A stretch of 52,914 nt of DNA, filler included, from Diploschistes diacapsis (taxonomy: Eukaryota), in assembly GCA_023645945.1 (NCBI GenBank). It is 3 parts of 3 records of this genome, joined end to end, with 100 filler letters (N's around TTAATTAATTAA, not from the genome) between each part and the next. Parts side by side here need not be neighbours in the genome. Positions count along the whole stretch, not along the records: positions 1 to 17,575 come from JALAIB010000449.1; 2 more parts are not named here. One strand, written 5' to 3'. A program made the translations under genes and the position numbers. Numbering within the stretch: the stretch's first letter is position 1; the number at the start of each line of letters is the position of its first letter. The notes beneath the pieces are model-generated. The model ran no database searches and had not been told where the DNA came from. It saw only the letters and a program-made list of their open reading frames with translations. Below, one piece after another: positions 4,082 to 4,377 of the stretch.

Positions 4082-4377
4082 CTAGTAGATTGCCGCATCA
4101 GCATCGCTGACAGGCTTGCCGTCCTCTGCTTGTGCCATTTGCCATGTGCCCGTGCCTGAAAAGATTTAGTTGGCAGGCGTATTTCTACACCATCTCCATG
4201 ACAGTATCTTGAGCGGAGCGCTCCACCATAACATCGGTGCTAAGTTGGTCTCCTAAGGAAAGAAGTCGGCGATTCGATTCAAGCATTTATATTCAGTGAC
4301 ATACCAGGAAAAGGTGACGCAGCGGCAAAGACAAGTGCCTGGAAAGGCATAAGAAGGATGGCGTGAAGGAATTTCAT
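4082..4377 (-). CDS. Small secreted peptide, candidate RiPP precursor (3 exons: 4377-4305, 4252-4208, 4155-4082); the second intron donor reads AT instead of GT
   Basis: cacaATG start and signal peptide MKFLHAILLMPFQALVFAAASP. Canonical 52-nt intron 1 (gtatgt...ccttag). A second 52-nt intron-like segment (atactg...tgccaac...ttttcag) restores a 63-aa product ending VER-SAQGTGTWQMAQAEDGKPVSDADAAIY*. Lies between the two DUF3328 genes. Confidence 0.65.

Follow-up and report, generated by a model that had tools for sequence, protein, structure and literature searches.

The described precursors of fungal UstYa-type clusters, namely UstA for ustiloxin, PhomA for phomopsin, and AprA for asperipin-2a (UstA-type precursors), are Kex2-processed repeat proteins of hundreds of amino acids. 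They have an N-terminal secretion signal followed by tandem core repeats, with dibasic Kex2 sites flanking each core and a core of the YxIx type. In the accessible part of the published analysis of these repeats, YxIx is given as the core of the ustiloxin-type repeats of ustiloxin and phomopsin (Umemura 2020, PMC7329392). For lichen fungi, the accessible part of a RiPP survey describes Parmeliaceae clusters, assigned to Clan R1 and ustiloxin-like, in which a tyrosinase lies next to two UstY-type genes with double HxxHC motifs and an O-methyltransferase lies between the UstY genes (PMC12048977). In the same part of that survey, no precursor and no repeat precursor was found in 111 lichen fungal genomes, a single-core peptide was raised as a possibility, and the precursor is openly stated to be a gap for the lichen clusters (PMC12048977). 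Fungal UstYa/DUF3328 clusters are found via their enzymes, and without the precursor peptide the product can be neither predicted nor made. Decayed secondary-metabolite clusters of fungi show disabling lesions that arose independently in several of their genes and that vary from one close lineage to another.

The window (the whole stretch of DNA that was analyzed, 52,914 nucleotides with filler included, from the Diploschistes diacapsis assembly GCA_023645945.1) holds such a set of enzyme genes. On the minus strand, Pfam searches placed a tyrosinase (PF00264) at 968-1661 and UstYa/DUF3328 domains (PF11807) at 3370-3870 and 5237-5973, and the window starts about 1 kb past the tyrosinase. A tyrosinase next to two UstY-type genes with double HxxHC motifs is the arrangement reported for Clan R1 in the accessible part of the survey, and the two are likened by gene content; the window cluster differs in being a pseudogene relic (PMC12048977). 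Where Clan R1 has, in the same source, an O-methyltransferase between the UstY genes, the window has a candidate mini-gene, on the same strand as the three enzyme genes, and an interval of about 860 nt from it to the second UstYa gene without a Pfam match (PMC12048977). Among the 12 ORFs of at least 45 aa in 4367-5340, none matched a methyltransferase or gave a sign of any other gene remnant at E values up to 1. An open frame of 188 codons at 4591-5157 on the minus strand, between the candidate and the second UstYa gene, has no family match and a composition that is not protein-like, and it is probably not a gene. On the plus strand, Pfam found a membrane protein with a fungal rhodopsin domain and an FAD monooxygenase. 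The rest of the window consists of ordinary genes (isopropylmalate synthase, KRR1, eIF2B-epsilon, Spt20, and others). A CCR4-like nuclease with leucine-rich repeats (17709-20216, minus strand), an NTPase with TPR repeats (22287-24863, minus strand), and a cytochrome P450 fragment (26778-27296, plus strand) were also seen, with no evidence of a link to the cluster. The enzyme genes are as follows.

968..2356, minus strand: tyrosinase pseudogene (Pfam PF00264), with in-frame TAA 1685-1683 and TGA 1664-1662 in the copper-A motif
3095..4022, minus strand: UstYa-1 (DUF3328) pseudogene (PF11807; tblastn of homologues), with the HILHC and HLQHC core present
5246..6170, minus strand: UstYa-2 (DUF3328; Pfam, tblastn), with HQLHC and HYAHC present

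Judged by its reading frames, the whole cluster is a relic, and the window copies of the tyrosinase and UstYa-1 are pseudogenes. The copper-A stretch of the tyrosinase reads WHRYFLHLF-stop-TALQDE-stop-...YWDW, and the first stop stands in place of a conserved Glu. When X was placed at the stops, the translation aligned without gaps across both of them to PDB hemocyanin and tyrosinase chains. The first copper-B histidines had no Pfam or PDB match, a result that is not interpretable alone. A frameshift near 1900, suspected by eye from comparison with an N-terminal motif, gained no confirmation in the PDB search and is not claimed.

For comparison between lineages, Logan contigs were aligned to window positions 3300-4700, and three public runs were used, referred to as X1 (a lichen metagenome, the best match to this DNA and possibly the source of the window) and, as close relatives, X2 (a named organism) and X3 (a rock metagenome with a depth of about 3.5). 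In the window, the UstYa-1 frame from the ATG at 4022 stops after 29 codons. The first intron of this gene (GTACGT at 3914, CTAAC branch, TATAG at 3826) requires an exon before it, in a frame without any ATG. Relative to the window, the X2 contig carries an additional 178 letters at 3945, and because 178 is 3n+1, these letters would join the frame from ATG 4022 to the splice frame. Precisely here, at the N terminus, 35 of 39 full-length UstYa-1 homologues have a membrane segment that is lacking in the window. From the extra letters of X2 (by count only) and this membrane segment, we infer a loss of about 178 bp from exon 1 of the window copy, which took away the membrane anchor and the frame. 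The last exon contains an in-frame stop at 3151-3149, and similarity to a homologue continues beyond it. A search with UstYa-1 in a word-indexed protein collection returned 49 candidates, none of them significant, and a single-protein query for related loci in JGI metagenome contigs matched 226 patterns, of which none was confirmed.

The relatives carry other lesions. In X2, Asp replaces the first His of the first HxxHC motif of UstYa-1 (3612; H87D, at alignment position 87, invariant in 28 of 28), and the first donor is weakened by changes at 3915 and 3910. X2 is unlike the window left of about 3479, inside UstYa-1 exon 3, and in an X2 contig of low depth about 3215 is followed directly by 3399, so that 3216-3398 is absent. 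A contig of X3, also of low depth, joins 3203 to 3564, and 360 nt of UstYa-1 (3204-3563) are missing from it. Three lineages with three different sets of UstYa-1 lesions point to a cluster released from selection. The lesion density in the enzymes is about 1 per 500 bp, and at this density one lesion is expected in a candidate gene of 296 bp. In UstYa-2, the ORF from the likely start at ATG 6170 stops at 6036, and a stretch like a membrane helix continues in another frame (5974-6170); a frameshift in exon 1 of this gene is possible from this reading.

The candidate lies between the two UstYa genes at window positions 4082-4377. An earlier note, made from the sequence alone, had described it as a hidden secreted-peptide gene of three exons on the minus strand, with a second splice donor lost. 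When the window sequence was re-read, its coordinates and letters were all found as described, and every statement about the layout of exons, segments, and stops was correct. The parts of the candidate are listed below.

4305..4377, minus strand: exon 1, with ATG 4377-4375 in the context CACA-ATG; 24 codons, signal-peptide-like
4253..4304, minus strand: intron 1, 52 nt, with a GTATGT donor, a CCGAC branch-like site, and a TTAG acceptor
4208..4252, minus strand: exon 2, 45 nt, with a codon score of 0.165 and 0 differences from X2
4156..4207, minus strand: second intron-like segment, 52 nt, starting with ATACTG (AT, not GT), with a GCCAAC branch-like site and a TTTTCAG acceptor
4185..4187, minus strand: early stop TAG, reached with the second segment unspliced, giving 46 aa
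4082..4155, minus strand: exon 3, 74 nt, with 23 full codons and the stop TAG at 4084-4082

Exon 1 (4377-4305) encodes MKFLHAILLMPFQALVFAAASPFP and the first base of a split codon. With both segments spliced out, 63 codons are open; with intron 1 alone spliced out, the frame ends at the stop at 4187-4185 after 46 aa, as the earlier note had it for the segment left unspliced. The product of exon 3 is acidic and has one Trp and a Tyr at the C terminus. The spacer from the stop of the candidate to the UstYa-1 ATG is 59 nt, and that ATG was found at 4022, in agreement with the distance of 59 bp in the same note. Tandem Repeats Finder reported an imperfect 7-nt tandem of 2.9 copies at 4131-4150, within the proposed exon 3; such a tandem is prone to slippage, may have shaped that part of the peptide, and could slightly raise the codon score. 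The candidate exons were also considered as the missing N terminus of UstYa-1, and this was rejected, because no usable donor precedes the stop that ends exon 3 and because counting the 178 nt of X2 brings the frame from ATG 4022 into the UstYa-1 splice frame.

Several features of the candidate were set against chance. Signal-peptide-like starts were sought with a crude, home-made filter that was tuned post hoc so that the candidate just passes, and the candidate start is among the 3 of 1821 window ATGs that pass this filter; the other two lie within low-complexity repeats. The spacer 4023-5236 has 26 minus-strand ATGs, which puts a chance filter match there at about a few per cent. A relaxed scan of 1-7000 for hydrophobic N termini gave five matches, and the candidate was the only such ORF in the cluster core; of the other four matches, three are dead ends of 23-29 aa and one corresponds to the initial membrane helix of the next gene. 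Six introns of the three enzyme genes could be defined by homology, and their donors are GTACGT, GTAAGT, GTGCGT, GTGAGT, GTGAGT, and GTGAGC, with G at +5 in 6 of 6 and branch sites of the CTAAC or CTGAC type. Intron 1 of the candidate fits this local pattern. The second donor is weak even with the G restored (GTACTG, or GTACAG in X2), having no G at +5 against 6 of 6 in the local introns.

Codon usage was scored after training on 13 Pfam-verified ORFs of the window. The joined three-exon frame scored 0.156 bits per codon, compared with -0.083 and -0.252 for the other two frames. This score was matched by 4 of 275 short ORFs (top 1.5%) and stands at the 59th percentile of the Pfam-verified gene pieces, whose mean is 0.136; with cruder training sets, 0/256 and 1/144 short ORFs reached the score of the candidate. 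Exon 3 alone scored 0.26, versus 0.004 and -0.09 in its other frames. None of the five public runs listed with this DNA is RNA, and an exact 22-nt pattern from exon 2 had no match in the JGI metagenome contigs. No Rfam family was found in 1-8000, and a search for longer direct or inverted repeats gave nothing relevant. The regions upstream of the candidate, UstYa-2, and the tyrosinase shared one 7-mer (null mean 0.84) and no 8-mers or 9-mers.

The second donor was then compared at position 4207 in the window, X1, and X2, as the X3 contig does not cover this position. X1 (depth 93.8) also has A there and is possibly the source of the window, so it is not independent. X2 is about 97% identical to the window, with 15 differences (14 of the 15 listed) and one gap in 3945-4407. 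At 4207, X2 has T>C on the plus strand, which is G on the minus strand, the base that the earlier note had predicted blind as the original one; given 15 differences in 463 nt, the chance of X2 matching the predicted G is about 1-2%. X2 also has A at 4203, which makes its second donor GTACAG. Donor 1 is lost in X2 through a 1-nt deletion at 4303 and a change at 4300, and the exon-1 frame then stops after 27 codons. X3 retains donor 1 and has a 1-nt deletion in codon 2 (4374), possibly an error at a depth of 3.5. An intact copy is thus present in none of the three lineages (window without donor 2, X2 without donor 1, X3 with a codon-2 frameshift at low depth). The statement that the gene was inactivated by one splice-donor change holds insofar as donor 2 is absent in the window, and it understates the general decay seen in X2, X3, the tyrosinase, and UstYa-1. 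Upstream of the candidate, a minority contig of X2 (depth 26 versus 62 for the other) has about 197 extra letters at about 4488.

Within the candidate, the X2 differences number 4/73 in exon 1, 4/52 in intron 1, 0/45 in exon 2, 2/52 in the second segment, and 1/74 in exon 3; in the surroundings they number 3/59 in the spacer, 9/206 upstream, 6/336 in the UstYa-1 exons, and 8/167 in the UstYa-1 introns. The exon 1 changes at 4362, 4346, 4343, and 4342 give A6T, P11L, and F12S, and the single change in exon 3, at 4110, gives V to A, so that all four differing codons of the proposed exons change the residue and none is silent. Exon 1 (4/73) diverges at the non-coding level. Exons 2 and 3 together have 1/119 differences compared with 20/432 in non-coding sequence (Fisher p=0.06), which is like the UstYa-1 exons (6/336); as a conservation signal this lower divergence is suggestive, not more. 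The block 4082-4252 overall (3/171) is not significantly below the non-coding divergence (p=0.15).

The candidate is probably what remains of a three-exon gene that encoded a small secreted peptide, made as a precursor of about 63 aa. The rare signal-peptide-like start, an intron 1 of the local type, the coding-like codons, and the G at 4207 in X2 argue that it is more than chance, and a dead gene fits the lesion density of the locus (the tyrosinase stops, the UstYa-1 deletion, H87D in X2, and the 360-nt gap in X3). Counting against a gene are the 0 of 3 lineages with an intact copy, the weak second donor, the residue-changing differences from X2 with no sign of purifying selection, and the closeness of the candidate stop, just 59 nt ahead of the UstYa-1 ATG. 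These same points would suit an ORF arisen by chance, either in the spacer or within the UstYa-1 promoter or 5' leader, with features that are coincidences picked by eye. We consider this unlikely, along with its corollary that 4082-4252 diverges less because the promoter or leader of UstYa-1 is constrained. At their length, exons 2 and 3 could be open at random (about 0.5 and 0.3, the author's estimate and not computed), and the divergence of the block 4082-4252 (3/171) gives p=0.15 against non-coding sequence, but a chance ORF requires four largely independent coincidences: a start of a kind found at 3 of 1821 ATGs (with the filter tuned post hoc), an intron 1 that agrees with the local consensus, a codon score that, in this frame only, ranks among the highest 1.5% of short ORFs, and precisely the predicted G at 4207 in X2. 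An intact two-exon gene, with a pre-peptide of 46 aa ending at 4187-4185 and position 4207 as an ordinary Asp/Gly coding difference, is very improbable. The canonical intron 1 would serve it as well, its read-through frame is open to the stop with a codon score of 0.132, and the X2 change at 4203 is silent in that frame; but exon 3 has a coding-like score (0.26) in no frame except that of the three-exon model, the G of X2 at 4207 would be a coincidence, the X2 copy is broken at donor 1 regardless, and oxidative cross-linking would find no Tyr, Trp, or Cys in the mature part. For a decayed three-exon gene, the ancestor would have had an intact copy that combined the donor 1 of the window and X3 with the donor 2 of X2. 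Function of the cluster would then have been lost, and the enzymes and the mini-gene would have decayed independently, each lineage gaining its own lesions. If a transcript is still made from the window copy, it would retain the second segment and end after 46 codons.

Whether this dead gene was also once the precursor gene of the cluster is a separate matter, and such a role is possible though somewhat doubtful; the position, the strand, and the absence of another candidate speak for it. The peptide would have been the substrate of the UstYa and tyrosinase enzymes, as a single-copy precursor without repeats or Kex2 sites. Its signal peptide would bring it into the ER, the site of the membrane-anchored UstYa oxidases, where oxidative cross-linking by the UstYa proteins and the tyrosinase could be followed by proteolytic release. 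The likeness to UstA-type precursors lies in the neighborhood, as the candidate too shares its strand with adjoining UstYa/DUF3328 genes and a tyrosinase, and in a putative N-terminal secretion signal, which in the candidate is a start that passes the crude filter. It differs from them in being single-copy instead of having tandem core repeats, in having no dibasic Kex2 sites, in having its only Tyr as the last residue instead of a YxIx-type core, in its length of about 63 aa instead of hundreds, and in being broken in the window and in both relatives seen. The 63 codons contain no KR, RR, KK, or RK, no internal repeat, and no YxIx. The candidate is not filed as a precursor of the UstA type, since by its predicted peptide it fails on repeats, dibasic Kex2 sites, and the YxIx core. 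The roles that the earlier note proposed for VER (monobasic cleavage), D-A-D (recognition), and AAIY (core) found no support, with 0 dibasic sites, 0 repeats, and 0 YxIx; of its proposal of a hidden, inactivated secreted-peptide gene, the gene itself is likely from the start, the codons, and intron 1, and the precursor role rests on position.

The gene-level evidence is the same if the candidate was a real, now dead gene for a small secreted protein that was never a substrate of the cluster, such as an effector-like or cell-wall peptide. The peptide has none of the sequence hallmarks of known UstYa substrates, and a precursor of the repeat type could sit outside the window, which begins about 1 kb past the tyrosinase. 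A non-substrate gene is nevertheless unlikely, as the candidate shares its orientation with the two class-defining enzyme genes, is packed tightly between them, and decayed along with the cluster, and there is no rival precursor candidate in 1-8000, where Tandem Repeats Finder found no tandem repeat of coding size that would indicate a repeat-type precursor. Our tentative best explanation of the whole, at rather less than even confidence, is that the locus may be a dead three-exon secreted-peptide gene in an ustiloxin-type cluster of an ascomycete from a lichen metagenome, its peptide having been the substrate of the cluster enzymes. Compared with other decayed fungal clusters, it may additionally keep a mini-precursor gene of a type undescribed for this cluster class. 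No description of a single-core UstYa precursor was found in the full-text literature, a scope in which subscription journals are largely not included.

Even if the candidate had no precursor role, the locus clearly shows a peptide cluster decaying independently in close lineages, and it cautions that clusters of this kind, when tallied from domain hits, may be dead. If the candidate was a precursor, the remnant may show what the starting peptide of the lichen clusters looks like. That lichen-associated ustiloxin-type clusters use an unannotated kind of precursor, a secreted peptide of about 60 aa that is present in a single copy and lacks repeats and Kex2 sites, is a speculative and on balance improbable proposal, and the same low expectation applies to its gene being a three-exon mini-gene immediately upstream of one of the UstY genes, with the window locus as a fossil of it. 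If true, a precursor of this kind would explain why none was found in the 111 lichen fungal genomes in the accessible part of the survey (PMC12048977). The search image would then be a short three-exon gene with a signal peptide, on the same strand as and just upstream of a UstY gene and missed by gene callers, and it could be applied to the published lichen genomes. The UstYa family would in that case be able to act on single-core peptides without Kex2 processing.
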